From a virus, in IMG/VR virus record IMGVR_UViG_3300029905_000002, positions 1 to 64,000 of that record: a stretch of 64,000 nucleotides of DNA, one strand, 5' to 3'. The position numbers were made by a program, and so were the translations under genes. The notes below the pieces were generated by a model. It saw only the letters and a program-made list of their open reading frames with translations, searched no databases and had not been told where the DNA came from. Numbering within the stretch: the first letter of the stretch is position 1; each line of letters opens with the position of its first letter. This document shows, in pieces, positions 8,247-56,608 of the stretch.

Positions 8247-8339
8247 GGGGTACCAATTATATACTATTCAAACTTGAGTACTTATATCATTCCACATATC
8301 AATCTACTATCAATCCAGCTACTCTAACAATCTGGGGGT

Positions 8340-8870
8340 TGGCAAAACTAGGATCCTCAAGGCTCAAGGAAGGATCCAGGCAAGTACTATGCCAACACAT
8401 ACCCCATAAGGCCTCTAAATGGGGATCCTCAAGGTACCAAGACAATAAAGCCAATTAGCTCTACTACTATACTATCTACTATACAGGTAGCTATCTAGCT
8501 CTTATGCGCAAGGTGTATTAAGGGGCTCCAATAATTACCCATTGCCAAGATCCCCTAACCAACCCTTTATTATAGTTATTAGTATTATAGGGTGCATAGT
8601 TGGTAGGATTTGTGATTCAAGGCAATCGGATCGTTGATAATCAGGGAGTTATGTACCTAGATTGCCTAGATCCTAAGTTTATACTATATAGTTATTATAT
8701 AGGGTGGGTTGTTAGGATTTAGGCAATAGGATTTAAGGATTTATGGCCTCAAGGTAGTGGGGATTTATTAAAATCCTAAGCCTTTTTGTGTACCAAATGG
8801 CCCCTTAGGATGGCAAATTTAGGGGCTAGGATTTGTACCTTGGGGCCTCCAGGATTACCTTTTCAAGGTA
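8340..8870. repeat. Iteron-like motif cluster in an ORF-free region
   Basis: AGGATTT-type motifs occur at about 8605, 8714, 8728, 8736, 8759, 8828 and 8851, with an inverted copy at about 8771. CTCAAGG occurs at least 4 times and GGATCC 3 times. Confidence 0.55.
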
Positions 8871-9000
8871 CCGTTTCTTAGTACTAGGTACATTTACAAG
8901 CTAACTAAATACTTATACCAATAAAAAGAATGCTCTAGAAGCTTACCTATTCTGTAACTGATTGACTACCAATTACTTATCAACTTACGAACCCTATATT

Positions 9001-9079
9001 TTGCATATTAAAATAAAATGCGTACCTTTGCACCGTGATAGTTTATACATATTGTTTCATTAATTAAATTTTTTAAGAT
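9001..9079 (+). promoter_or_regulatory. Third copy of the early promoter/leader type
   Basis: TAccTTTG at 9023-9030, followed by caccgtgata. Copies A and B read cagcgtgattt at the same place. A similar AT-rich leader runs to the ATG at 9080. Confidence 0.55.
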
Positions 9080-9946: not shown

Positions 9947-9965
9947 TTGACTTTCCATATTCTCT

Positions 9966-10002
9966 ATACCTGGCTTACCTGCGATAGGACATAGCCAGGT
10001 AT
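9966..10002 (+). terminator. Stem-loop after the last early gene
   Basis: atacctggct ... agccaggtat, a 10-bp stem with a 17-nt loop. Followed by ctttgtgt. Confidence 0.45.
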
Positions 10003-10193
10003 CTTTGTGTATACGCTTATCTGAGGAACCTTATCTGAGTCCTACTAAGCTTACCGGCGAACATATATAAAGGCTATATATGGCCCTGTGGTTTCTGAGG
10101 TTATATGATAAAGGCTATATAGGGCCTTATTGATTTAGATCCTTTGGGACCATAAGGTGTATGCAATGGCCCCGGGGATTTAAGCAATTAAGG

Positions 10194-10269
10194 ATCCCAT
10201 ACCTATCCATCTATCCTTTCCTATTCATACTATCTTCTATTCATACCTACCTCTATCCTATATCATACA
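10194..10269 (+). repeat. 76-nt G-free tract with CTATCC/CTATTCATAC repeats
   Basis: Hand count finds no G from 10194 to 10269. ctatcc occurs 3 times. Its reverse complement, ggatag, resembles the AGGAT core of the 8.6-8.9 kb motifs. Confidence 0.7.
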
Positions 10270-10319
10270 GGTATATATAAGCTCTCTAGCGGAAGTGGGA
10301 GACCGAGCCCACCAAAATA

Positions 10320-10720
10320 AATTATATGAAAAATCTTTACACAAAATTCAGATGGGAGTAATTCCCAAAAATTTTTCAAAAATTCAAAAAATTTTTATAA
10401 AATAAAAATAATAAGAAAATTCTAAAAAATTCTTAAAAAATTTGGTTTTCTAAAAATCCAAATAATTTAAGATTTTTTATAAATAATCCCTACATGGTCC
10501 CACCCTGACCCTATCTTTCTTTATATATAGAATATCGTGCGCAAATAATAAAAAATTTGATTCTACAAAATTTTTTTAGAAAAATAAATAATTATTTTGA
10601 GTTGGTTAACTTAAAAAATTTTTTGTATTTTGAAAATTTGTATTTTTCAAGGGAAAAATAGGGATTTTTGTTAATGGATTAAAAAAATATAGGGTATTTT
10701 TTGGTGATTCAAAAAAAGTC
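10320..10720. repeat. Very AT-rich block of repeated A(5-7)T(4-7) tracts
   Basis: Tracts include caaaaatttttcaaaaattcaaaaaatttttataaaataaaaat and further aaaaaatt / aaaattt units. No ORF is present. Confidence 0.6.
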
Positions 10721-10722
10721 CG

Positions 10723-10730
10723 TACCTTTG
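10723..10730 (+). promoter_or_regulatory. Bacteroidota-type -7 box
   Basis: cgTAccTTTGca is the same core as at 9021-9032. It lies about 180 nt upstream of the ATG at 10910. Confidence 0.5.
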
Positions 10731-10740
10731 CAATGTCGAA

Positions 10741-10762
10741 GGGAGATAAGGAGTTATCTCCC
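10741..10762 (+). other. Leader stem-loop
   Basis: gggagataa-ggag-ttatctccc, immediately downstream of the -7 box. Confidence 0.45.
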
Positions 10763-10826
10763 CAGTGGTTGAAAAAGTGGAAAAAATAGGACTTTTTTAA
10801 GTGTTCTTTGATTTAATGATACAAAT

Positions 10827-10851
10827 GTTTCACGTGAAACTATTTTTTTTT
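10827..10851 (+). terminator. GTTTCACGTGAAAC palindrome plus T-tract (attenuator or terminator candidate)
   Basis: 14-bp perfect palindrome at 10827-10840, followed by tattttttttt. It sits between the promoter box and the gene. Confidence 0.5.
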
Positions 10852-10909
10852 CCTACCTACAAAAACGTGAACGATAAACTAAATTAATAACTCTAAAACT
10901 CAAAAGAAT

Positions 10910-11383
10910 ATGGAAACAAATAACAATCAAAACCAAAATCAAGTTACTACAAATGTAGCAACAAAAAAAGAAAAAGTAAATAAAGTGAGTGCAAAACGCG
11001 CCGTTGCTCAAGCAAAAGCAAACGGCAATATCCTCGATAAAATTACATCCTTTCGTAATTCGGGGACGATTGCAAAAGGTGTAAAGGGGCAAAATGTTGA
11101 CCTTTACAAAAAAGAACTTTTTGCAGGCTTATTTGACCAACAAAAAAAGATGGCACGCAAAAAATTACGTCAGATTCGGGACGGATTTTTTGCAGAAATT
11201 TTGTCCTGCAAGGACAAAACAAAACTCAAAAAGTTGTGCCAAGACTTTTATAAATGGTATGTTGATATTTATTCAGTAAATGATTTTTCAGTTAATTCGG
11301 TATGTAGCGGCCGAACGGACGATAATACCCGTAATTTGTGCGAAAAAGCATTACAAATTGTGAAAACAAATGTAAGTAAGTAA
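10910..11383 (+). CDS. lysine/arginine-rich hypothetical protein (moron-like)
   Basis: 157-aa ORF. CpG-containing codons (cgc, cgg, acg, tcg) are frequent here, unlike in neighbouring phage genes. It shares an ARKKxRQ block with the partial ORF at 3..347. Confidence 0.7.
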   Translation: METNNNQNQNQVTTNVATKKEKVNKVSAKRAVAQAKANGNILDKITSFRNSGTIAKGVKGQNVDLYKKELFAGLFDQQKKMARKKLRQIRDGFFAEILSCKDKTKLKKLCQDFYKWYVDIYSVNDFSVNSVCSGRTDDNTRNLCEKALQIVKTNVSK

Positions 11384-11391
11384 AGAAAATT

Positions 11392-11405
11392 GTTTCACGT
11401 GAAAC
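11392..11405. repeat. Second copy of the GTTTCACGTGAAAC palindrome
   Basis: Identical 14-mer located 8 nt after the stop codon of 10910..11383. Confidence 0.8.
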
Positions 11406-11424
11406 ATTCTAAAAATAAAAAATA

Positions 11425-11505
11425 ATGAAAAAATTTCTTTTTGTATTGGGTACATTTGTACTCATGTACTTTCTTATTCTAATTTTGTGGGCATTATCTT
11501 TTTAG
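11425..11505 (+). CDS. possible 26-aa hydrophobic peptide
   Basis: Hand translation gives MKKFLFVLGTFVLMYFLILILWALSF*. It lies just upstream of a strong terminator. Short ORFs like this can arise by chance. Confidence 0.25.
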   Translation: MKKFLFVLGTFVLMYFLILILWALSF

Positions 11506-11516
11506 AAATCTTTAAT

Positions 11517-11542
11517 AAATAGGGGACGTTTGTCCCCTATTT
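11517..11542. terminator. Bidirectional intrinsic terminator
   Basis: aaataggggac-gttt-gtcccctattt with an A-tract upstream and a T-tract downstream. It sits at the convergent junction of plus- and minus-strand genes. Confidence 0.7.
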
Positions 11543-11743
11543 TTTTATTCCTTACATTAAATTTAACGTAACCGTTAGCGGCCCTAAGTACTATACCCCA
11601 TACGTACACATTAAAGGAGATCCCAGTGAAAGCCAATGCCAAGCAAAACACAAAGAAAGAGACCCTTGGATCCCAAACATAATTTAGGGACCCTAAGATT
11701 TCTCCCAAAGCCCCAAAAATTTTTCGCAAACCCTACGTACGTA

Positions 11744-11989
11744 TTAAAGGGATCCCAAGAATTCCTCTAAAGTCATCTCCTTATTCCCATCTATCCTTAC
11801 CACATCCACCCTTCTTTTCATTTCATCTAAACTCCAAGGTATCTCATCCTCAAATAAAAACTCATTCCCATAGAAAGTAAACCATCCCACTTTGAAATAA
11901 GAATAACCAAGGTTTATAAAATCTCCATTATCATAATACCCCTCAATAGGTATTCTCTTAAATCCTTCAATCCTCATAATAATACTCAA
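11744..11989 (-). CDS. hypothetical protein
   Basis: ORF track; part of the minus-strand packed array. Confidence 0.5.
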   Translation of the reverse strand: MSIIMRIEGFKRIPIEGYYDNGDFINLGYSYFKVGWFTFYGNEFLFEDEIPWSLDEMKRRVDVVRIDGNKEMTLEEFLGSL

Positions 11990-12290
11990 ATCTAAATCCT
12001 TTCACTTGCTTATAAATCCCTTTGCATACCTTAGATATAGAGCTATCAGAAATACCCAATTCTTTAGAGGCAGCTCTTATATTAGGGTATATTTTCCTAT
12101 TAGTATTACAAAATACTGCTCTAGAAGATCCCTTATTATAGCCCCAAGATTTCCTATTTAGTACCATCTTCTTAATCCTATCCCTTTGCATCTCTAAAGT
12201 CTTAGGATCATAGATTTCCTCCCACCTATTACCTTCAGCAAAGTTATTGCCTTTACCAAAATGCCCATTAGGTAATCTGTATTTCCTCAT
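11967..12290 (-). CDS. putative DNA-binding protein with a NUMOD1/IENR-like helix-turn-helix
   Basis: The C-terminal block IYPNIRAASKELGISDSSISKVCKGIYKQVKGFRFEYY resembles DNA-binding modules of homing endonucleases. No nuclease motif was seen. Confidence 0.4.
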   Translation of the reverse strand: MRKYRLPNGHFGKGNNFAEGNRWEEIYDPKTLEMQRDRIKKMVLNRKSWGYNKGSSRAVFCNTNRKIYPNIRAASKELGISDSSISKVCKGIYKQVKGFRFEYYYED

Positions 12291-12291
12291 C

Positions 12292-12633
12292 CTAGTAATC
12301 TATGCCTTTGCGTTCAATGATTAGGTTCCCTGTCTCATGATCGTTATAGGTCCAGGAAGGAAGGTTCTCAAAGGGTCCTTCTGCAGGCTTATCTTTTGAA
12401 ACTTGATATCCTATCACTACCCAGAACCAGGCAATTAGGATTCCATGAAGTACCCATTGAAGTTTACCAAATGCCTTGAATCCGAACTTAAAGTATAAAG
12501 CAATCCAAATCACTGGGTAGATGGGAAAGATTATAATCAGAAGGATAATTAATCCTCGGATAAGCATGGAGGTAGTAGAATCCATTGTGGTTCCTACTCT
12601 CCTAAAATTTCTATCATAGTGGGTATATATCAT
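12292..12633 (-). CDS. hypothetical membrane protein
   Basis: Several hydrophobic segments (LIRGLIILLIIIFPIYPVIWIALYF, LHGILIAWFWVVIGY). Confidence 0.5.
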   Translation of the reverse strand: MIYTHYDRNFRRVGTTMDSTTSMLIRGLIILLIIIFPIYPVIWIALYFKFGFKAFGKLQWVLHGILIAWFWVVIGYQVSKDKPAEGPFENLPSWTYNDHETGNLIIERKGIDY

Positions 12634-12650
12634 AATTAGTAGGTATTAAA

Positions 12651-12673
12651 AGCCAGGGAATTATTCCCTGGCT
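12651..12673 (-). terminator. Intergenic palindromic stem-loop
   Basis: agccagggaa-tta-ttccctggct, between two minus-strand genes. Confidence 0.4.
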
Positions 12674-12678
12674 AGAGG

Positions 12679-12876
12679 TTAATTAGATAGCTTTTTCTTT
12701 AGGATTAAGAAAAGGTATATGATGAAGAATCCTGGAGTAATCATCCAAACGGATAGGAAGAAAATGAGCTTCCCTGGTACTCCGTACTTTTGCATCAATC
12801 CCTCTTTTAATCCGAACTTAGTAAATACGATTGCCGGTATAAGGCACAGTAGGTATAGAATAGTGATGGCAATCAT
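12679..12876 (-). CDS. small two-TM membrane protein (holin-like size)
   Basis: 65 aa with two hydrophobic spans and a basic C-terminus (LKKKLSN). Confidence 0.45.
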   Translation of the reverse strand: MIAITILYLLCLIPAIVFTKFGLKEGLMQKYGVPGKLIFFLSVWMITPGFFIIYLFLILKKKLSN

Positions 12877-13217
12877 AGGAGGTTATTAAGTTTAAGGATA
12901 TACTTGGGATCGGATCCCTTAAATCCATTTCTCAATTCGTGTTGAATGTTCTCCAATTTCCTTTTCAATTCATGGTATGCTTTATAGGCCTGGAATAAGG
13001 TTTGATTCTTCTCATTCAAGGGTAAGGCATATCCTTCTTTGCCATCGGTTCTTCCGAAGATTTCTCCAGAAGGAATTCTTGATACTACTACTTTGTTGGA
13101 TAGTTTGGCAATCTTCTGAGATTTGTTGATTTCGATCACCTTAGCAATCTCATAGAGGGTTTTCCCATCATGGTAAAGCACCTCTTGTTCTGGCTTGAGT
13201 TTTTTAATTTTGTCCAT
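12873..13217 (-). CDS. hypothetical protein
   Basis: ORF track; overlaps the start of the downstream gene. Confidence 0.5.
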   Translation of the reverse strand: MDKIKKLKPEQEVLYHDGKTLYEIAKVIEINKSQKIAKLSNKVVVSRIPSGEIFGRTDGKEGYALPLNEKNQTLFQAYKAYHELKRKLENIQHELRNGFKGSDPKYILKLNNLL

Positions 13218-13240
13218 AAATAAATAGATATATTAATACG

Positions 13241-13633
13241 TTACAAATTTACGGGTAAATTTTTAATTTCTTGTATATATTTTTCTATTTCTTGCAAATT
13301 AGTGGGGCAAGGGATTATGTTCTTGAGGATAATCCAAGTATCTTTGGTAAGGAAAATGGTATTTGGGGTTATATCCAAATCCTCTTCTATCTTCATATAA
13401 GGCATCAGATTCCCCATATACTCGAGGTTGTTATGAGAAGCCCAAATCCTCTTGTTTGTATTATAAAAATACTTCATAGTGGAAGAGATTGGGTAGGACA
13501 TTCCGATGGAGATATCAGAATATGCTTGGTGACCTCTAATCTTCCATACATCAAAATCTTTAGTGATCAGATATTTCCAATACCCAAGATCCATCTTATC
13601 CCAATAATGTTTAATACTTTCTTGTAAGTTCAT
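13241..13633 (-). CDS. hypothetical protein
   Basis: ORF track; first gene of the minus-strand array. The antisense ORF 13271..13627 is judged spurious. Confidence 0.5.
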   Translation of the reverse strand: MNLQESIKHYWDKMDLGYWKYLITKDFDVWKIRGHQAYSDISIGMSYPISSTMKYFYNTNKRIWASHNNLEYMGNLMPYMKIEEDLDITPNTIFLTKDTWIILKNIIPCPTNLQEIEKYIQEIKNLPVNL

Positions 13634-14756: not shown

Positions 14757-15797
14757 ATGAAACCCAAGAAACTCAAAGTCATGGGATGCTGTGCAGGATC
14801 CGGAGCAGCTCTACTTTTCCCGTTTTTGAACGATGAAAGGTTCGAAATACTGGGAAATTTAGAGCCCAGACCTGTATTTCATACTCCAAAAGAGGAGCAA
14901 TGGAGACTCAACTTCGATAAAATACCCTTTGTAAAGTCCTTCGAACTACCCGATTGGGAACCTGATATTATTGTATCAAGCCCCGATTGTGGTGCAAGTA
15001 GCATTATGAGGCTTTCTAAGAAGAAAAAGTTGGGTAAACCCGAGAAAAATAAGACCATTAACCTGGTTCTCAAGGCAATTATTACCTATAAACCCCAAGT
15101 TTTTCTGATTGAAAACCTCCCAAGGCTCCTGGATTTTATTCCTAAAACCGAATTTTGTCTCAGATTCCCTGGATACAAGCTCATATTTCACTGTCATTCA
15201 GTAATAGAGTTCGGTAATTCCCAGAAGTCAAGGAAAAGGTTGGTAATTATCGGAGTAAAAAGAGGCTCTAAGTTTAATAGGAAATCCTTCGCAAAGATAT
15301 TTAGCATAAATAAGCCAAAAGTTACTAGAAAATTACTAGAACTTGCCTGGGGCAAGGGAAATTTTATCCCACCAATGGATAAAGTTTTGGCGATGTATGA
15401 TTATCGAAAATTGCCTAAGAAGGAGAATTTAACTGTAGCAGAGATCCAAAAGCTCTGGAATAATGACTTCAAAAATGAATACAAATGGCCGATCAAGACA
15501 AGAAAAATGAAATCCCTACCTGGAGTTTACCGATTAAAGGAGGATACATACCCGATGACGGTAAGACCTGCAGATAGGCAATTTAGACCCGATGGATTAC
15601 CTTTAGGGATCCAGGATATGAGGGTAATCATGGGAATACCGAAATCCTTCAAACTTTATTTCCCTGAGAAATTCAAGGACTTGGTACCAACTTCTGAAGA
15701 TAAAGATTTTCTTTATTACCTCAATAAAGCCAGGTATACCCTTACCAAAGGTTCGGTAGGTGAAATAGGATATTGGTTCAAAGAGTGCATCTTATAA
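14757..15797 (+). CDS. divergent DNA (cytosine-5) methyltransferase
   Basis: Motif I-like GCCAGSGA, motif IV-like SSPDCGASS, motif VI-like FLIENLPRL and motif VIII-like QKSRKRLVIIG occur in the canonical order. Confidence 0.55.
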   Translation: MKPKKLKVMGCCAGSGAALLFPFLNDERFEILGNLEPRPVFHTPKEEQWRLNFDKIPFVKSFELPDWEPDIIVSSPDCGASSIMRLSKKKKLGKPEKNKTINLVLKAIITYKPQVFLIENLPRLLDFIPKTEFCLRFPGYKLIFHCHSVIEFGNSQKSRKRLVIIGVKRGSKFNRKSFAKIFSINKPKVTRKLLELAWGKGNFIPPMDKVLAMYDYRKLPKKENLTVAEIQKLWNNDFKNEYKWPIKTRKMKSLPGVYRLKEDTYPMTVRPADRQFRPDGLPLGIQDMRVIMGIPKSFKLYFPEKFKDLVPTSEDKDFLYYLNKARYTLTKGSVGEIGYWFKECIL

Positions 15798-30428: not shown

Positions 30429-31208
30429 ATGAAATGGATACAGATAAATCAGACATCTATTGGAGCCCAAGATTATAATTTGGTAGAGAAAGTTGGAGAG
30501 GATGTGAATGTATTTTCTCCTAGTCTTTATAAGGCTATTGATTTAGGCTTACCAAGTGGACTTTTATGGGCTGATAGGAATATAGGAGCTGCTACTCCCG
30601 AGGATGGTGGCTTATATTTCCAATGGGGAGATACCCAAGGATATACGGCCGAGCAAGTAGGTGACGGGGAAGGATTAAAGGCATTTAGTTGGACTGATTA
30701 TAAGTGGAGTGTTGATGGTTCTTCAGATAACTTCTCGAAATACAATAATACGGACAATAAAACGGTTCTCGATTCAGAGGATGATGCAGCACATGTAAAT
30801 ATGGGTGGAAATTGGAGAATGCCAACATCCGATGAATACAAGGAATTGTGTCTTAATACTGACATTTACTTAGTTCTGACAGAGGGTGAAGAAATACAAG
30901 GCACTGCACAAGAGCAAAGCGGAAGAGTAATGATTAACTGGGCGTCTCAGGCAGAAGGAACTTTGAAAGGTGTTAAATTCTATAAGAAGGGCGACAAACA
31001 AACATATATGTTTGTTCCTGTTTCTAGTGTAGCTTACGATGGCCCTATTCAGGATGTCGGTGAGGACGGCGCCTTGTGGTCTTCTTCGCTTCGTTCTTCA
31101 GATGTTCAAGATGCGTGGGACTTCGGCTTCAATGCGGGCTACGGCGGCATCGTCGGCGGCTTTCGGTTCATCGGTATTTCCGTTCGTGGAGTTAAAGAAA
31201 CAATTTAA
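30429..31208 (+). CDS. FISUMP (Fibrobacter succinogenes major paralogous) domain protein
   Basis: GLLWADRNIGA, GLYFQWGD, GGNWRMPTSDEYKEL, LWSSS and a GISVRGVKE end match the TIGR02145-type pattern. Confidence 0.65.
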   Translation: MKWIQINQTSIGAQDYNLVEKVGEDVNVFSPSLYKAIDLGLPSGLLWADRNIGAATPEDGGLYFQWGDTQGYTAEQVGDGEGLKAFSWTDYKWSVDGSSDNFSKYNNTDNKTVLDSEDDAAHVNMGGNWRMPTSDEYKELCLNTDIYLVLTEGEEIQGTAQEQSGRVMINWASQAEGTLKGVKFYKKGDKQTYMFVPVSSVAYDGPIQDVGEDGALWSSSLRSSDVQDAWDFGFNAGYGGIVGGFRFIGISVRGVKETI

Positions 31209-31221
31209 AATATAAAACAAT

Positions 31222-33072
31222 ATGGCATATGTAAATTTCTGGAAGGGTCTAGAAGCGAATTATAATTCGGAGACTCATAAAGATGGTATTTACCAATGTA
31301 CCGATACTGGTAATACCTATATATTTGGAGTTCTTAATAAGAATTCTATTGGGTATGAGGATAAATATTGCATTGCAGAGTGGTCTGATGATCCTAATCA
31401 ATTAGAAATTCTAAATCTCCAAGGAGATTTAGAATTTGCTCGTGACTACCATCCTGTATTAGTAGATACTCGGGATAATCAGAACGAGACAACTAAAATA
31501 GTTGGTATGTTGATGGATAACAACATTTTGAGATTTTCGGATGGATCATTTGCTCCTGCTGTTTGTATTACACCTGAAAGAAAGGCTGAATGTGATGTAG
31601 AGCTTTATTTAGACCCTGATCATACTCAAAAATACTGTGATGCTGGTACTTTTAATCCCGTAGATTTTTATAATGAATACGGGATGGCCGATTTGTATGA
31701 TATAAATGGTAATAAAGTTAATGTATTACGTCCCTGGGAAACTACAGAAACTTATTATTCGAATATGATCACTAGATCTTCAACGGTTTATCATTTAGAT
31801 CGTCAAAAAGGAGCTTCTGGTAGAATTTGGAGTGGAATATTCGGTAGGCCAGTAAATTGGGATGGTATAGATATTACAGAATTTAAACTAGTACCAACAG
31901 GTCTTTCAGCATCTAAGTGTTGTACTATAGATGGTAAATTGAGATCTTTTTATTATCTCTTTGAGGCAGATCATGCTAATTGTAAATCTAATAAGACTTT
32001 GGATGGTATAGATGTAGTTGGTACTACTAAAGCAGTATTTCCTAGAATTTCTGATATTTCTCAAATTACTGCTATGAACTATGCTCGGGCTAATAATTCA
32101 GATCCTACGAAACCTTATCCATTTGCAGAAGGAGGTTTGCCGGCTTTGTTGGTATTTTCTACTTGTTTGGAGATCTACAATAAGACCAAAAATATCACTG
32201 GTATTTACGGTAGTGGTAGTTCTTCTAATGACAATATTGATGTAGATACTGTTGAAGATAAAGGTGGTCTTAGGATTAATGGTACCTCAGTTCTCAAGTT
32301 TAATCAGAATATTACTTATGGTGATGGTAATGTAAATTATTTATCATATTATCTTTCGAGTTATAAACCTCTATTTCCCTGTATGGAGCCCATTGTAGCA
32401 GCTTCTTATGCTAATGAAAGGAAGATTGCAGATGGAGAATGGTTTGAATTCTATGGTAATCAATATAAGGTTACTAGAATTTACCCAGATAAACTTGATT
32501 GCATTGTAATCAAGAAAATATCTTTTACTAAAGGGTCAGATAATATGGAGCTCTTTATTAGGGCTTCTATTACTTTTGGGGCTAATTATATGGGAGATAT
32601 TTGGGCTTATGTAGGAGGTGGATATGAAACGGTGGGTACTTGTAGTAATGTAACTCCAGGAGCTAATGGTGTTGGTCAAACTAATGAATGTTATATTCAA
32701 TATGATCAAACTCAATGGCATAGTGAAACTGCAATATATAAGGATGATTTGGGTAAGTTTGATTTTGAATCTACTTATAAGAAGGTTTCTACTTTCCAAG
32801 ATATATCAGACGGATGGAGAGATGATCGTATCCCAAATACTCCCTGTTCAGTTACACGAGTTTCAAATAGTCAACAAGGAGATAGCTTCTATAACTGGAT
32901 GAATAATTATTGGGGAACAGTATTGAATAGGAGAGTCAGACGAGAAATGGCAATGTTTGCGAGGTCGTCCTTTGCAGAATGTTCTCTTCGTACTTGTGAT
33001 CTGAACGATCCTGTTTCTCATACTAACCTCAACATTTCTTGCCTTGCCCAAGCCCAATTAGACTTAGGTTAA
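31222..33072 (+). CDS. DGR target protein: tail fiber/receptor-binding protein with a C-terminal variable region
   Basis: The N-terminus MAYVNFWKG...TYIFGVL is homologous to fiber 28833..30350. The last ~38 codons contain the VR. Confidence 0.85.
   Translation: MAYVNFWKGLEANYNSETHKDGIYQCTDTGNTYIFGVLNKNSIGYEDKYCIAEWSDDPNQLEILNLQGDLEFARDYHPVLVDTRDNQNETTKIVGMLMDNNILRFSDGSFAPAVCITPERKAECDVELYLDPDHTQKYCDAGTFNPVDFYNEYGMADLYDINGNKVNVLRPWETTETYYSNMITRSSTVYHLDRQKGASGRIWSGIFGRPVNWDGIDITEFKLVPTGLSASKCCTIDGKLRSFYYLFEADHANCKSNKTLDGIDVVGTTKAVFPRISDISQITAMNYARANNSDPTKPYPFAEGGLPALLVFSTCLEIYNKTKNITGIYGSGSSSNDNIDVDTVEDKGGLRINGTSVLKFNQNITYGDGNVNYLSYYLSSYKPLFPCMEPIVAASYANERKIADGEWFEFYGNQYKVTRIYPDKLDCIVIKKISFTKGSDNMELFIRASITFGANYMGDIWAYVGGGYETVGTCSNVTPGANGVGQTNECYIQYDQTQWHSETAIYKDDLGKFDFESTYKKVSTFQDISDGWRDDRIPNTPCSVTRVSNSQQGDSFYNWMNNYWGTVLNRRVRREMAMFARSSFAECSLRTCDLNDPVSHTNLNISCLAQAQLDLG
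32957..33051 (+). repeat. DGR variable repeat (VR)
   Basis: 95 nt matching TR at a constant offset of 253. The 5 mismatches (32969, 32972, 32998, 33007, 33019) are all opposite TR adenines. Confidence 0.9.
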
Positions 33073-33087
33073 GATTCCGCAGGAATC
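33073..33087 (+). promoter_or_regulatory. Hairpin immediately 3' of VR and the stop codon
   Basis: gattcc-gca-ggaatc, a 6-bp stem beginning 1 nt after the TAA. The position is analogous to the DGR target-recognition hairpin. Confidence 0.5.
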
Positions 33088-33209
33088 TATAGTTATAGTG
33101 AGCGCAGCGAACATTAAAAATCTTAAGGGCTCCTAACAAGAGTAACATTGGGATTACTCCTCTGAAGTAGGACACTTAAGTTGGAAAAATGGATGGGTAT
33201 AGCGAGATC

Positions 33210-33304
33210 TTGCGAGGTCGTACTATGCAGAATGTTCTCTTCGTACTTGTAATCTGAACAATCCTGTTTCTAATACTAACCTCAACATTTCTTGCCTTGC
33301 CCAA
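33210..33304 (+). repeat. DGR template repeat (TR)
   Basis: Noncoding copy of VR with about 23 adenines. In the VR frame it reads LARSYYAECSLRTCNLNNPVSNTNLNISCLAQ, rich in AAY codons. Confidence 0.9.
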
Positions 33305-33442
33305 AATGGGAACTTAAATGGCCGTACCTATTCATACTCAGAAGTAGTAAACTATAAGACAACCTACTCAGGATACTTATCGATTGGGGTATGTATTAGA
33401 GGAGTAGGTCCTACCTATGGTAGGATAAAGCCCATTCTTTAT

Positions 33443-34798
33443 ATGTTAGAAAATATAATAACTAAAGAACTCGTAGATCAGGCCATTGTCAAAGCTAGTA
33501 AACATAAACTAAATCGTTCAGAAGTACAGAAGGCTTTAAAAAACAAAGAGAGATTATCTGATCGACTTTATGAAAGTATTCTGGATGGTACTTATTCTAA
33601 ATATATTAGGTATACAGACAGAATAAAAATCGGTCACAATAAAAAAGTAAGGCATATTAAAATGCCATCCTTTAAAACTCTAAGCCTTCAGCACCTCTGT
33701 ATCTTCATGATAAAAAGGTTTTATGATAGAGTAGATAATTTAAATGGTTTAAACTGTAAAGAGGGTTGTGGTATAACTTCTAAGAATCGAAGAAAATCTG
33801 TTTTGAAACGAGTTAAACATATCTTCTTTGATAAGAGAGATGCTAATTACTTATTAATCATCGATCAAAGGAAATGTTATGAGCATATATCTCCCAGTAT
33901 ATTTAGGGCTCAAGCTAAGAAGTTAATACCTGACCATGAGCTTATAGATTTTATAATATCGGTATGTTTCTTTAATAAGAAATTACCTATTGGAGCTCCA
34001 ACATCTTCTCTTATACATCATGTTATTATGTTAAGATCTGATTATTTTGTTCGGAGTTTAGTGGGTATGAAAGGTTCTGTGAGATATGCCGATGATAATC
34101 TAATAGCCTTTGATACAAAAGAAAATGCTAATACTGCTAAGTGGAGAATTATGAACTTTTGGTGGTATGAGTATAAAATAAGGAATAAATCATTAACTAC
34201 TCGTGTAATACCTATCATTCAGAAGAACATAGATTTTTGTGGATTTGTATTTAATCGAAACTTAGGTAAGAAGATTACGGATCATAATAAAGGCTATGTT
34301 AAAATACGATGTGATACTCTTACTAGATTAACTAGAGTAAAGGATATAAAAGCTTTACCAGCTTATTTGGGCTTAATAAAACAATCTGATTCGTATAATT
34401 TTTTAAAACATTCAAGCGAACATAATATGAAGTTACTTGAATTAACCCGTAAAATTAAGATTGAACGTAAGTTTGATGCCGATAACATAGACATAAAAGA
34501 TCTGATAGGGAAATCTTTTGTCTTGATAGATTATGAGATTCGAGAAAAAGATAATAAACCTAGTTGGATGAAATGTTTGGTTGGGTTAACTAAAGATGTT
34601 AGTAAATCTAGGAAAGAAGTAAGGGTTTATGAATTTCATGGAAATTTTCAATACTTGATGAGATATCTTTTAGAGATAGAGAAGAAGTTAAGTAGGGAAG
34701 ATTTTTTACCTATTACTGATTGTAGTATAGAAGATAGGTGTGGTTATATCTTTAAAGGTAGTACTAAAGTAATCGATTATATAAACTTAAAATCTTAA
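33443..34798 (+). CDS. DGR reverse transcriptase
   Basis: Motifs IIDQRKCYEHI, LPIGAPTSS and RYADDNLIAF. It lies 140 nt downstream of TR. At 451 aa it has about 130 aa beyond the RT/thumb region. Confidence 0.85.
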   Translation: MLENIITKELVDQAIVKASKHKLNRSEVQKALKNKERLSDRLYESILDGTYSKYIRYTDRIKIGHNKKVRHIKMPSFKTLSLQHLCIFMIKRFYDRVDNLNGLNCKEGCGITSKNRRKSVLKRVKHIFFDKRDANYLLIIDQRKCYEHISPSIFRAQAKKLIPDHELIDFIISVCFFNKKLPIGAPTSSLIHHVIMLRSDYFVRSLVGMKGSVRYADDNLIAFDTKENANTAKWRIMNFWWYEYKIRNKSLTTRVIPIIQKNIDFCGFVFNRNLGKKITDHNKGYVKIRCDTLTRLTRVKDIKALPAYLGLIKQSDSYNFLKHSSEHNMKLLELTRKIKIERKFDADNIDIKDLIGKSFVLIDYEIREKDNKPSWMKCLVGLTKDVSKSRKEVRVYEFHGNFQYLMRYLLEIEKKLSREDFLPITDCSIEDRCGYIFKGSTKVIDYINLKS

Positions 34799-34803
34799 TA
34801 AGT

Positions 34804-35670
34804 ATGAGTACATATTCAAAAAATCTTGTACAGATTCACCGTAGTAATTCTGACTATGGAGAAAACGATCTGGTAAAGGGCAATAAACTGATTAAGACTT
34901 TTGGTAGAACTAAAGATATATACTATTTCTTTCATCAAACTCAGAAAGAAATGTATCAAGAAACTTCCGAATCCGATCCTTTAGAAGTTGAGGTAGTTTA
35001 TGCTTTACCCGTTGTGGTAGATGTTAATACAGATTATGATACTATAGTAAGAGAAGCTATAAAAGCTTTTTATGGTATTAAAACTGATTCAGATTACATT
35101 AATCTGTTAGAAACTCTCTATGGAGAATTTTATACTAACCCGAGTAAATCAGAATATATACTTTTGGTAGATGAGATCAAGTCTCAATTGAATTCTTATG
35201 GCTTTTTTAATAAGTCTAATAAGTCTATTAGTAATCTTTCTTCGGGTATTTCTTTAATTGAATCCTTGGTAGCTATTCAAGAGATTATTAAAGAAGGTAG
35301 TTTAAACCTTCCAGATGAATCAGTAGTAAAGTTAAAGAATTTTTATGAACCCTGGGAATCTTTTATTGGTAAACCAATGAAATTGGGTACTATCTTTACT
35401 TATAATGGATCTTTGTATAAGGCTATTATCGATATAGATTCAGTAGTAAGTACTTGGATACCTGGGTTTTCTACTCTAAATATATATAATCCAATATCGG
35501 AGCATACTGGTTCCGAAGAAGATCCTATACCCTATAGTAAGGGTATGTCTTTGAAAAATACTTTGTATTATACTGAAAACAACATATTGTATCAGTGTAT
35601 CATAGATTGTATACCCACTTTGATTACTCTATCGGAGCTTTGTGAATTAAAGTACGTTACTAAAGTATAA
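34804..35670 (+). CDS. hypothetical protein downstream of the RT
   Basis: 288 aa. The C-terminus carries two similar aromatic blocks (FTYNGSLYKAIIDIDSVVSTWIPG and LYYTENNILYQCIIDCIP), which look like a carbohydrate-binding module. This is a weak call. Confidence 0.5.
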   Translation: MSTYSKNLVQIHRSNSDYGENDLVKGNKLIKTFGRTKDIYYFFHQTQKEMYQETSESDPLEVEVVYALPVVVDVNTDYDTIVREAIKAFYGIKTDSDYINLLETLYGEFYTNPSKSEYILLVDEIKSQLNSYGFFNKSNKSISNLSSGISLIESLVAIQEIIKEGSLNLPDESVVKLKNFYEPWESFIGKPMKLGTIFTYNGSLYKAIIDIDSVVSTWIPGFSTLNIYNPISEHTGSEEDPIPYSKGMSLKNTLYYTENNILYQCIIDCIPTLITLSELCELKYVTKV

Positions 35671-36269
35671 TGGCACAATCCATAAATCGTACTATAAAGT
35701 TGCCTGGTCTAGCAAACTTGCAGATTTATGTAGATAAAAGAGATCAGCAAAGAGCTTTACACTTGCTAGACAGGCAACCCCATATCTTAAGAACTGCATA
35801 TGAAAAAGCAGCTTGTGAGTTTGGAAATAAACTCCTTAAGATAGTGAAAACTTGTCTCAATAAGGGTCAACCACCTGCAGGACAAGGTGTATCTTGGCCC
35901 CCACATTCTCCTCATACTACTAAGAGATTCGGGGCTCATCCTCTTCTTCATCTTACTGGTCAATATGCCAGAGAAGTACAGATTATGAAGAATAAAAAGA
36001 ATGGTAGAATCATGGTAGGTGTACCAAATGTAATGAAAGAACGTCAGACTTCTAAGTCCCAGGGAGGTACAACTACTAATTCTATCCGAACCCTAAATCA
36101 GATTGCCTATATTCTTGAGGTTGGTACATCCAATATACCTCCAAGACCTCTTTGGAAACCAGCTTATCAAGCTGCAGGAGGTAATAAAGAAATTAGGAGA
36201 CTCATGGTAAAACACATCCGAAAAGAAATCAGAAAAGAAATAGGAGGAATCAGAAATGCCAAACTTTAG
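35670..36269 (+). CDS. HK97 gp10-like head-tail joining / tail completion protein
   Basis: LEVGTSNIPPRPLWKPAY resembles the gp10 family signature. Confidence 0.4.
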   Translation: MAQSINRTIKLPGLANLQIYVDKRDQQRALHLLDRQPHILRTAYEKAACEFGNKLLKIVKTCLNKGQPPAGQGVSWPPHSPHTTKRFGAHPLLHLTGQYAREVQIMKNKKNGRIMVGVPNVMKERQTSKSQGGTTTNSIRTLNQIAYILEVGTSNIPPRPLWKPAYQAAGGNKEIRRLMVKHIRKEIRKEIGGIRNAKL

Positions 36270-37590
36270 TATAGACATTACCGAAGGTATGGGTCCCTCC
36301 GAGATAAAAGTTAGACCTAACAGTATGAATTTAACTTCTGACCCATTAACTGGGTATGTTAAAATTCGTACTAGTGATGGTTTTTCGCAATCAATCCCTT
36401 TAACTCAAAAGACAGGTAAGTTTACTTATAAATATACATTAGAAGCTAATCCTGCAACAATCCAAATAGATTCCTTTGGTGGTTCTGCAACTCTAAACAT
36501 TACATCCATCAAAGAAACCTATTTGGATGATGTATTATTAGAAACTGATGAGAATTGGGGATATAGTTTATCTGCGGATCCAGGTATTACTTTAGATGGT
36601 AATACAGTTACTGTTGGAGAAAATGTAAATAATTATGATATAACCAGTAAAGTAAAAGTAACTCAAAATGAATCTGGTAAGAAGGTATACATCAATATAT
36701 CCCAGGAAGCCAAGTCTGCTGTAGAGGGTTGGAAGTATTATTTATTCTCTGCATCTAATGGTAATGCTACTAGTTTACCTGAAATTGATGTTGAAAAAGA
36801 AGTAGGTTTTGATGGATCTGATGCTGATATAGGAGATTGGGTTTTCGGATTTGCTATTAAAACCCTAGATGGAGCTTTAGTAATTGGAAATGATGATTTA
36901 GATTTGAATGGATGGGCTGAGCTCATTACTAAGTCTGAGAACTTTAGTAATGTAATGAGATTAGATACCATAAAAGTTACTGGAGCTAATTTAGAATCTT
37001 TAGTTAGATCTAATACTCAAACCGAACTTCAATATTATTCTTTAACTCCACATTTAACTTTATCTAAGAATACTACTGGACAATCACGTAAGGTTACTGT
37101 TAAATTAAGCCTTAATGAAAATCCTAGTTTAGTTCTTACTTATATATTTACTCAAGAATCAGCTGAAGCAATATTTACTTGGGAAGATGGTAGTACTGTT
37201 AAAAATTTGGGTATTTTTGGAAATGGAGGAAGTAATACAAAACCGAGTTATCTTTATAATTCTAACTATTATCCTAAATTAAATATTAGGTCTATACTTT
37301 CTGATGGAGAACCCTTTGATGATCCAGGTTTAGTAATTAGAAGTATAGAAGTAGATGATCCAGATGGTATAACTTCATTTGGTAATACTAAAACTCCAAC
37401 TGGTACTATTTCTTCAGATAAACCTGATATAATAACCTTTAGTTTTGGATTCAGTAGTTTTGATGATATGATAGCTAATGGATCTCCGGGTGAACATACA
37501 ATTACTGTATATCAGTTAGATAGAGATGAAAATAGAACTGGAAAGAGTATTACTTTGAAGTATAGTTTAACAGGTACTTATTTAAAATAA
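36256..37590 (+). CDS. hypothetical structural protein with Ig-like repeats
   Basis: 444 aa, beta-rich and repetitive. No specific motif recognised. Confidence 0.45.
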   Translation: MPNFSIDITEGMGPSEIKVRPNSMNLTSDPLTGYVKIRTSDGFSQSIPLTQKTGKFTYKYTLEANPATIQIDSFGGSATLNITSIKETYLDDVLLETDENWGYSLSADPGITLDGNTVTVGENVNNYDITSKVKVTQNESGKKVYINISQEAKSAVEGWKYYLFSASNGNATSLPEIDVEKEVGFDGSDADIGDWVFGFAIKTLDGALVIGNDDLDLNGWAELITKSENFSNVMRLDTIKVTGANLESLVRSNTQTELQYYSLTPHLTLSKNTTGQSRKVTVKLSLNENPSLVLTYIFTQESAEAIFTWEDGSTVKNLGIFGNGGSNTKPSYLYNSNYYPKLNIRSILSDGEPFDDPGLVIRSIEVDDPDGITSFGNTKTPTGTISSDKPDIITFSFGFSSFDDMIANGSPGEHTITVYQLDRDENRTGKSITLKYSLTGTYLK

Positions 37591-55780: not shown

Positions 55781-56427
55781 TAATGTAAATCTTCTTTAGC
55801 CCTTTCTTCCCAGAAATTTATTTCCTCTCTAAGTTCAGAAATGTATCTTAGAGAGGATTTTTTTTGTTCTAAACCAAAGAAATCTAAGAGTAGATGATTG
55901 GTAATCCTTCCATCGGATCTCATCCTTTCTTGTATATAAGGAGGAGGAGTAACTAATACCTCAAATACAATGTAAGCATCTCGAGAAATATGTTTTTTCA
56001 TATACTCATACATCATACTGAGCATAACGGATTTGGCAGTTTGTTCTTCTGTATCATCCTCTAATTCTTTTGAATCATCAAATAAATCCTCAAGTTTCTG
56101 TAAGTTCTGATTATATTCTGCCTGCTCAGTATAAGCTCCCCTAAGTATCTTGCATTTATAAGTTGATAAGGAAGCCAAGATCCTTGCTTTAAGATGTTCC
56201 TCAGAACAAGTACCCTGATATTTATTAAAAACATATAATACTTTGTCCCAGAATTGATCCCTGAGAATATCCGATGTAAGGTTATATCTCTTGGCATCAA
56301 TCTGCCTAACCAGGTTTTTAATTACTGGTTTACAAATCTTATACATCCGTTCGAAGAGTTGGTGATCATAGTCCTTCATCTCTTTTAGTCGATGTAACTC
56401 AGAGCCGCTGATGTTAACTGTGTCCAT
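55777..56427 (-). CDS. putative transcription regulator (sigma-factor-like), hypothetical
   Basis: Lone minus-strand gene between the structural and replication modules. Helical, 216 aa, with its own TAnnTTTG box. Similarity to sigma factors is only impressionistic. Confidence 0.3.
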   Translation of the reverse strand: MDTVNISGSELHRLKEMKDYDHQLFERMYKICKPVIKNLVRQIDAKRYNLTSDILRDQFWDKVLYVFNKYQGTCSEEHLKARILASLSTYKCKILRGAYTEQAEYNQNLQKLEDLFDDSKELEDDTEEQTAKSVMLSMMYEYMKKHISRDAYIVFEVLVTPPPYIQERMRSDGRITNHLLLDFFGLEQKKSSLRYISELREEINFWEERAKEDLHY

Positions 56428-56447
56428 ATTAAAATAATTAAGTTATG

Positions 56448-56455
56448 CAAATATA
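56448..56455 (-). promoter_or_regulatory. Bacteroidota-type -7 box for the minus-strand gene
   Basis: The reverse complement reads TATATTTG, about 20 nt upstream of the ATG (minus strand) at 56427. Confidence 0.5.
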
Positions 56456-56608
56456 TAAATTAAATACGATATATAAAAAGAATATATCAATAAATTTATA
56501 ATTTGGTGAAGTTAGGGTAGAGGATCATGGGGTTCTAGATATAGTTCTCAATAGTCATCCACATATCCGATACTATCAAAATCTATATGTTCTAAACATC
56601 TGTGCACA

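Follow-up and report, generated by a model that had tools for sequence, protein, structure and literature searches.

A probably functional diversity-generating retroelement without a detectable avd gene in a phage with contractile-tail genes

When a putative tail-fibre gene ends in a repeat whose second copy lies beside a reverse transcriptase (RT) gene, is the arrangement a working diversity-generating retroelement (DGR), a remnant of one, or a plain duplication next to an unrelated RT? The question is raised by positions 1-64,000 of IMG/VR record IMGVR_UViG_3300029905_000002 (hereafter the window, meaning that whole 64-kb stretch), in which a target gene ending in a variable repeat (VR), a non-coding template repeat (TR) and an RT gene follow one another. 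A reading made from the letters alone (hereafter the sequence-only reading) had proposed a DGR here, and this interpretation is supported by the alignment of the repeats, by related genomes, and by the integrity and kinship of the RT. We conclude, with a probability of about 95%, that the element is a functional Avd-less DGR of simple target-TR-RT build, carried by a contractile-tailed phage whose hosts are probably Bacteroidales. The features on which the argument turns are these:

31222..33072, + strand: DGR target gene, 616 aa, putative receptor-binding/tail-fibre protein (open reading frame (ORF), homology to the crAssE-Sib receptor-binding protein, BFVD fold)
32957..33051, + strand: VR, encoding target residues ~579-610 (repeat search and ungapped comparison)
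32968..33034, + strand: diversified VR core; repeat positions 12-78 hold all A-templated variation in 22 genomes
33210..33304, + strand: TR, non-coding, with 23 adenines (repeat search and ungapped comparison)
33443..34798, + strand: DGR RT, 451 aa (RVT_1, PHROG RT, profile and fold matches to 8ub7_A)
34460..34798, + strand: C-terminal extension of the RT, residues ~340-451 (secondary structure of the AlphaFold2 (AF2) model, family alignment A7)

The repeat pair and its variation in related genomes

The VR and TR are 95-nt direct repeats that stand at a constant offset of 253 nt and are 95% identical, as established by a repeat search and a base-by-base check; the similarity breaks off sharply at either side. 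The VR forms the 3' end of the 616-codon target ORF, and the TR lies inside a 370-nt intergenic gap. The two copies differ at five positions (TR 33222, 33225, 33251, 33260 and 33272), at each of which the TR base is A and the VR bases are, in order, C, T, G, G and C. With 23 A in 95 nt, the probability that five random mismatches would all hit A is ~6e-4. All five changes fall at codon position 1 or 2, turning TR codons TAC, TAT, AAT, AAT and AAT into TCC, TTT, GAT, GAT and CAT (YY..N..N..N to SF..D..D..H, at target residues 583, 584, 593, 596 and 600), and three AAC codons are left unchanged in the VR. The sequence-only reading had described this pair, its offset, its mismatches, the codon changes with several unmutated AAC codons, and the coordinates of the target ORF, all of which were reproduced here; mismatches at non-A positions, which it had named as the result that would speak against a DGR, are absent from the machine alignment (0/72). 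No third copy of the repeat was found on either strand of the window by a scan that allowed any change at TR adenines.

Neither the TR pattern, with N in place of A, nor RT peptides gave any match in scans of IMG/VR. Through a protein index we retrieved 22 loci from other samples that belong to an RT cluster at least 90% identical and have both repeats present, and scored each VR against its own TR. Across these near-identical genomes, 205 of the 227 VR/TR mismatches (90%) fall at TR adenines, where A is replaced by C in 84 cases, by T in 78 and by G in 43. The 22 genomes hold 18 distinct VRs as against 4 TR alleles. An intact RT of 451 aa is present in 16 of them, and each of these 16 has a VR of its own, also among samples from one sequencing project, while the rest of the cassette is ~99.8-100% identical. 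Because unique VRs are found in otherwise near-identical genomes with an intact RT, diversification must have been recent and repeated. The VR is indeed the sole hypervariable stretch of the cassette: in a 3.6-kb alignment of 13 genomes, scored in 50-nt bins, mean per-column variability is 0-0.009 outside the VR, and 0.037, 0.117 and 0.051 in the three bins that cover it. The sequence-only reading had expected variation of the VR in populations, and its surroundings are almost invariant. The adenines changed most often are A42 (19/22), A51 (16/22), and A63 and A75 (15/22 each). Variation restricted to positions opposite TR adenines is predicted by mutagenic retrohoming; neither selection nor drift would give rise to it, nor would gene conversion with a silent cassette as donor.

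The TR itself occurs in two main alleles, which differ at repeat positions 12 and 15 (window 33221 and 33224), both adenine sites. The T,T allele (codons TAC TAT) is found in the window and in loci L006-L009, and the A,A allele (AAC AAT) in most others. Locus L007 has the T,T allele, with T at position 15, but G at VR position 15; since this G stands opposite a TR T, the A,A allele is suggested to be ancestral. The allele change could reflect an occasional overwrite of the TR, or plain mutation. We also noted that third-codon TR adenines (GCA and GAA; repeat positions 20 and 23; 32976 and 32979) are changed in 1 and 2 of the 22 genomes, and adjoining adenines at codon positions 1 and 2 in up to 19; the GCA site, at least, is synonymous. 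The rarity of third-position change points either to uneven mutagenesis along the TR or to constraint at the nucleotide level.

The reverse transcriptase, the cassette family and the host phage

The sequence-only reading had placed an RT with RYADD and IGAPTSS motifs 140 nt after the TR. Both motifs are present (residue 183 for IGAPTSS, 214 for RYADD); the measured distance from the TR end to the RT start is 138 nt. Single-sequence searches match the protein to RVT_1 (E=2.9e-9) and to the PHROG RT family, and to no finer class. More sensitive comparisons were made at the level of profile and fold. A profile of 26 RT family members has 8ub7_A as its best PDB match (E=1.8e-9, over the full length of that chain), and a Foldseek search with the AF2 model of the RT (predicted local distance difference test score, pLDDT, 79) ranks the same chain first (E=7e-13; template modelling (TM) score 0.74 normalised to target). 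The library name of 8ub7_A is 'Diversity-generating retroelement (DGR) ribonucleoprotein reverse transcriptase' (Bordetella phage). The window RT has a C-terminal extension of ~110 residues, which is beta-rich in the AF2 model and conserved in the family; the 8ub7_A chain has 328 residues, and Foldseek matches to the window RT span just ~339 columns. We found no PDB sequence match and no informative Pfam match for the extension.

Scanning prokaryotic genomes, one for each species, we identified 29 further RT-family loci, nearly all of them in Bacteroidales genomes or metagenome-assembled genomes, with several adjoining Mu-like phage genes. A VR/TR pair of 102-118 nt, with mismatches nearly all at TR adenines, is present in 24 of the 27 loci that have enough upstream DNA; the scoring of these pairs favours A mismatches, but the segments are long and mismatches at other bases were counted as well. 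This RT lineage is found widely among phages and prophages of Bacteroidales.

In GenBank, a similar cassette is present in one phage only, the epsilon crAss-like phage crAssE-Sib (OR575929; Babkin et al., Viruses 2024, PMC11054128). Its DGR, like that of the window, is arranged as target(VR)-IMH-TR-IMH*-RT (IMH, initiation of mutagenic homing) without avd. The two RTs are 43% identical over 94% of their length and both lack the GxxxSQ motif; the VR/TR lengths are similar (~96-108 nt), with a common CCTTGCCC element at the 3' end; and GCA-triloop hairpins follow the VR in both, five of them in crAssE-Sib. By contrast, the phages are unrelated, since the window has contractile-tail genes and a different capsid protein, and we detected no DNA similarity to OR575929 outside the cassette in the region searched. 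The cassettes also differ in the RT motif (GxxxSS in the window, GxxxSP in crAssE-Sib), in the length of the VR-TR spacer (158 nt versus 356 nt), in the target, which is shorter at its N-terminus in the window, and in a conserved gene past the RT (ORF-X, below) that crAssE-Sib lacks. Judged by its sequence, the window element is a member of the crAssE-Sib-type, Avd-less, non-SQ DGR lineage in another phage backbone. Given that the same cassette occurs in differing phage backbones, the target-TR-RT unit is evidently a horizontally mobile module. The DGRs of cr10_1 (Suoliviridae) and similar crAss-like phages likewise reside in gut Bacteroidales phages as target-TR-RT cassettes, and in cr10_1 the VR/TR pair is 97 nt long, with all 18 of its mismatches at A; the RTs of these canonical crAss-like DGRs are only ~25% identical to the window RT.

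The target is 35% identical to the crAssE-Sib receptor-binding protein over 95% of its length (E=8e-109). Its sequence has no match in Pfam, PHROGs, NCBIfam or the PDB, whether searched singly or as a profile. It belongs to a family of >760 proteins, some of them on large Bacteroides and Phocaeicola contigs. The AF2 model (pLDDT 72; predicted TM score 0.78) resembles a BFVD entry named 'Receptor binding complex' (E=4.5e-21, TM 0.62) and also tail collar fibre proteins. Directly upstream of the target lies a 259-aa ORF (30429-31208) with a weak, sub-threshold match to Lcl_C (DUF1566-like; E=0.0047). This ORF is strain-dependent, being missing in loci L044 and L050 and replaced by ORFs of 81 or 105 aa in L005 and L010. 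We considered it as a second DGR target and rejected it, as there is no TR-like sequence there or elsewhere in the window.

The phage genes of the window include those for a large terminase, portal, prohead protease, tape-measure protein and T4 gp19-like tail tube, together with baseplate wedge proteins and gp25-like and gp5/V-like baseplate parts. Uncultured gut phages such as MT121964 have major capsid proteins 64-66% identical to that of the window. By this gene content, the host phage is contractile-tailed and not crAss-like. It probably infects Bacteroidales.

Elsewhere in the window, an ORF that follows a neck/tail-completion-like ORF (36256-37590, extending to ~38012) encodes 444 aa here; in other strains, otherwise near-identical, its product has 1087-1129 aa and includes a BACON domain. 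Locus L002 carries ~1.5 kb extra in this post-neck region, a second hotspot among the tail-fibre genes, here of the indel type. No + strand ORF of at least 60 aa is found in 11384-13270, 8278-9079, 9947-10909 or 55781-56608; the rest of the window is densely coded (~88%), almost all on the + strand. A tRNA scan of the window found no tRNA genes.

Candidate cis-acting elements and the gene past the reverse transcriptase

The following features flank the repeats or follow the RT:

33035..33068, + strand: invariant G+C-rich VR 3' end TTTCTTGCCTTGCCCAA with VR-specific flank GCCCAATTAGACTTAGG, candidate IMH (22 genomes)
33072..33088, + strand: hairpin AGATTCC-GCA-GGAATCT, 7-bp stem and GCA triloop, 20 nt past the VR
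33305..33321, + strand: TR-specific 3' flank AATGGGAACTTAAATGG, candidate IMH* (unlike the VR flank at the same offset)
33335..33349, + strand: spacer helix P1, TACT-CAGAAG-TAGTA (covariation in 22 related cassettes)
33356..33362, + strand: AAGACAA motif separating P1 from P2; AAGACMA in the family consensus (22-sequence alignment A4)
33363..33408, + strand: spacer helix P2, CCTACTC (33363-33369) with GAGTAGG (33402-33408) (minimum free energy fold in the window)
34804..35670, + strand: ORF-X, 288 aa, 6 nt past the RT stop (family conservation)

The last 17 nt of the repeat (positions 79-95, TTTCTTGCCTTGCCCAA) show no A-templated change in the 22 genomes, A94 and A95 included, and the VR and TR flanks part immediately past position 95. 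The equivalent CCTTGCCC element is the annotated VR/IMH junction in the crAssE-Sib record. By analogy with phage BPP-1, the VR 3' end may serve as the IMH; the name IMH* for the TR flank is taken from the crAssE-Sib annotation, and its function is putative.

The hairpin past the VR overlaps the final base of the target stop codon. Homing in BPP-type DGRs requires a GRNA-tetraloop hairpin 4-34 bp past the VR (PMC3240598). By comparison with BPP-1, the tetraloop seems to be replaced in this lineage by a triloop of GNA type. All 24 related cassettes have 1-5 GCA-triloop hairpins on the coding strand, the first of which starts 11-40 nt past the VR. We counted 51 such hairpins in 4,657 nt of VR-TR spacer and 15 in 233 kb of flanking DNA, a ~170-fold enrichment; among triloop classes in the family spacers, GCA accounts for 51 hairpins and the next commonest loop for 4. 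Where the spacer is long, the hairpins keep with the VR and not with the TR. Folded as DNA, the hairpin region of the single window gains no stability over shuffled sequences (z=0), so that conservation in the family, and not energy, is the argument for the hairpin. No GCA-triloop hairpin follows the VR in the canonical crAss-like DGR of cr10_1, which served as a single control, and we found no description of family-wide GCA-triloop hairpins in the literature.

The window has three GCA-triloop hairpins, including the one beside the VR; the others are TTTTGTCCT-GCA-AGGACAAAA at 11199-11219, with a 9-bp stem, and one at ~15298-15312, with a 6-bp stem. A third IMH-like copy before the RT start (GCTCAAACTTGA-type motif) was considered and dropped, being significant in 6 of 25 loci and reaching 9/16 matches in the window (p=0.35). 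A GCYCAA(A/G)CTTG-type motif at ~33425-33440, seen also in L015, L022, L026, L028-L032 and others, resembles the VR 3' end, and the two seem to change together (for example, TGCTCAAACTTGA before the RT and TGCTCAAGTT at the VR 3' end). This motif may be a coincidence or a translational hairpin.

The 138-nt spacer between TR and RT is predicted to form a structured RNA. In 22 related cassettes, helix P1 shows compensatory changes at five of five pairs, with 97% of cells paired, and the homologue of P2 covaries in the family, with double changes at five of six pairs. For P1 and P2 together, 90.5% of cells are paired, as against 66% in shuffles and 27-51% in slid controls, and there are 67 double-change cells as against 18 in shuffles; none of 500 shuffles came up to these values. 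The AAGACMA columns between the helices are invariant or nearly so. In BPP-1, an internal adenosine of the spacer (Sp A56) primes cDNA synthesis. We speculate, by analogy, that AAGACMA could be the priming region or contain the priming adenosine. No Rfam family scored above threshold in 32800-33600, where the only match was to a snoRNA, sub-threshold (E=0.34). Nothing informative came from a scan of 32700-35000 for sigma-70 promoters and terminators, Bacteroidales promoters being outside its coverage.

ORF-X has an N-terminal domain (~130 aa) whose homologues start between -43 and +93 nt from the RT stop in 17 of ~30 family loci. This domain has no Pfam or PDB match. The C-terminal part matches PHROGs of unknown function, and the add-ons found in its place in relatives match DUF4376 or a PHROG tail-fibre family. 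ORF-X might act as an accessory factor of the DGR, or else assist the receptor-binding protein as its partner or chaperone; its membership of the DGR is uncertain. We did not find a covarying spacer RNA with an invariant AAGACMA, the ~110-residue RT domain or the post-RT gene described in the literature.

Compared with the mtd-avd-TR-brt element of BPP-1, the window cassette shares A-specific TR/VR divergence, a VR at the 3' end of a receptor-binding tail gene, an invariant G+C-rich VR 3' end, a hairpin 4-34 bp downstream and a structured TR-RT spacer. The BPP-1 RT (bRT) is the best solved match to the window RT, yet the two are 19% identical. Unlike BPP-1, the window has no avd, its RT carries the extra C-terminal domain and IGAPTSS rather than GxxxSQ, and the hairpin has a 3-nt GCA loop on an A+T-rich 7-bp stem, rather than a GRNA tetraloop on a G+C-rich stem. 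The target has no detectable relation to BPP-1 Mtd.

Alternative explanations, proposed mechanism and significance

Several observations weigh against our conclusion. The canonical GxxxSQ motif ([I/L/V]GxxxSQ, motif 4) is absent from the window RT, which has IGAPTSS with the I retained. Among 30 aligned family RTs, 26 have SP, 4 have SS (the window included) and none has SQ, the commonest form being IGTPTSP. GxxxSQ is, however, a detection heuristic and not a mechanistic requirement, so DGR membership rests on the remaining criteria. In the window genome, just 5 of the 23 TR adenines differ from the VR. In the population set, ~10% of VR/TR mismatches fall at non-A positions; these may be ordinary mutations, traces of past TR alleles or assembly mixtures, and some of them are explained by TR allele history. 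The variable proteins of DGRs display their VR residues on a C-type lectin or Ig-like fold, and a Foldseek search of the PDB with the full-length target model returned no match of the C-type lectin kind, nor any other (best E=0.37). Finally, the 64-kb window shows neither Avd nor another known accessory gene, its 45 small ORFs giving no match to an Avd family, and no such gene recurs in the family loci.

The last of these points would fit a true DGR that depends on an Avd protein encoded elsewhere in the phage or host genome. The window covers 64 kb of a phage whose related contigs reach ~91 kb, Avd proteins are poorly conserved (PMC5758913), and our Pfam scan of the family loci reports the top 25 families. 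Nonetheless, no Avd-like family recurs among 98 small ORFs lying within 5 kb (8 kb for L001) of related RTs, and the VR-TR gaps of the family are 139-356 nt, leaving no room there for an avd gene. Avd is found in ~74% of DGRs and is hence not strictly defining; in a curated set, 29% belong to Architecture A, which has no accessory gene, and avd is missing from an entire RT lineage (PMC5758913). Indeed, the window resembles the Architecture A1 DGRs (Wu et al., NAR 2018, PMC5758913) in having target, TR and RT with no avd, HRDC, MSL or CH1; it differs from them in ORF-X, which might be an unrecognised accessory gene. We therefore regard a distant Avd as unlikely.

Less likely still is a fossil DGR, whose repeats and RT would be remnants that no longer diversify the VR in the window phage. 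The few changed adenines and the non-SQ motif could be read in this way, and some relatives show possible signs of decay. In a sister lineage of six contigs (L044-L049; equivalent to window 33443-34798, at L044:3501-4857), a break within the C-terminal domain leaves the RT in two parts of 387 + 67 aa, and these contigs hold 2 VR haplotypes, although the samples (ONAT22, BRZ, ERR4096604) may not be independent. The split RT could be a natural knock-out that freezes the VR, in keeping with loss of activity. In a few family RTs (alignment A3) the catalytic YADD has given way to RYADN or RYADY, which suggests inactivated copies, matching the fragmented RTs reported for Epsilonunovirus; many crAssE-Sib relatives have fragmented or deleted RTs (PMC11054128). 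The window RT, however, is intact, its exact sequence (P0001) is encoded by three further contigs, and in all 16 intact-RT genomes the VR is private and differs almost exclusively at TR adenines. RT disruption in relatives, which the sequence-only reading had named as a result that would count against it, is thus confined in the near-identical set to the one split lineage. On the strength of these sequence comparisons, the element is almost certainly active.

The weakest alternative, a plain duplication beside an unrelated retron- or group II intron-type RT with a VR that varies by selection or recombination, draws on 'retron-type' labels in NCBIfam and GenBank-style annotation, on retron Ec86 ranking first in the single-sequence PDB search and on weak matches to retron St85 and group II intron models, and can be set aside, given that those models score far below cut-off (retron_St85_RT 46.5 bits versus 235; group II intron 27 versus 300), that profile and fold searches rank the DGR RT first, that no Rfam family reaches threshold around the repeats, that RT, TR and VR occur together in 24 of 27 family loci, and that the A-restricted changes (205/227 in the population; 5/5 in the window) are not expected from selection or gene conversion.

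For a functional, Avd-less target-TR-RT DGR, we propose the following mechanism. The non-coding TR would be transcribed along with the structured 138-nt spacer, and the RT encoded downstream would copy it to cDNA, misincorporating opposite template adenines. The cDNA would then replace the VR, that is, the last ~30 codons of the gene for the 616-aa receptor-binding protein, at a recipient site marked by the invariant VR 3' end, the VR-specific flank and the GCA-triloop hairpin 20 nt downstream. Since 20 of the 23 TR adenines sit at codon position 1 or 2 of the VR frame, up to ~12 residues would be randomised while scaffold residues stay fixed, presumably altering receptor specificity. BPP-1 is the model for the direction of information flow, for the parts assigned to the hairpin and the IMH-like end, for priming by the spacer itself and for the effect on host range.

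The lineage could in addition be a mechanistically distinct, Avd-free DGR subtype, in which the C-terminal domain of the RT and/or ORF-X takes the role of Avd, target recognition uses GCA mini-hairpins and cDNA is primed at AAGACMA. As part of this joint proposal, one or more strand-specific GCA-triloop DNA mini-hairpins would replace the single GRNA-tetraloop cruciform. We offer the proposal tentatively, and think it somewhat doubtful as a whole.

A system of this kind is textbook, and ordinary for gut Bacteroidales phages; the value of the locus is mainly that of a clean, well-documented example. Public assemblies alone reveal 16 of 16 near-identical phages with differing receptor-binding tips and one conserved template. 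The lineage was first described in epsilon crAss-like phages, and is now seen also in a phage with contractile-tail genes and at loci with Mu-like genes. The crAssE-Sib DGR has a non-SQ RT motif, and myDGR misses such elements (PMC11054128). Because its RTs have SP or SS instead of SQ, motif-based DGR finders miss the lineage as a whole; surveys keyed to GxxxSQ would undercount it, and its abundance in gut viromes may be underestimated. The hairpins, the spacer RNA, the extra RT domain and the post-RT gene provide testable handles on how DGRs without Avd recognise their targets and prime cDNA synthesis.

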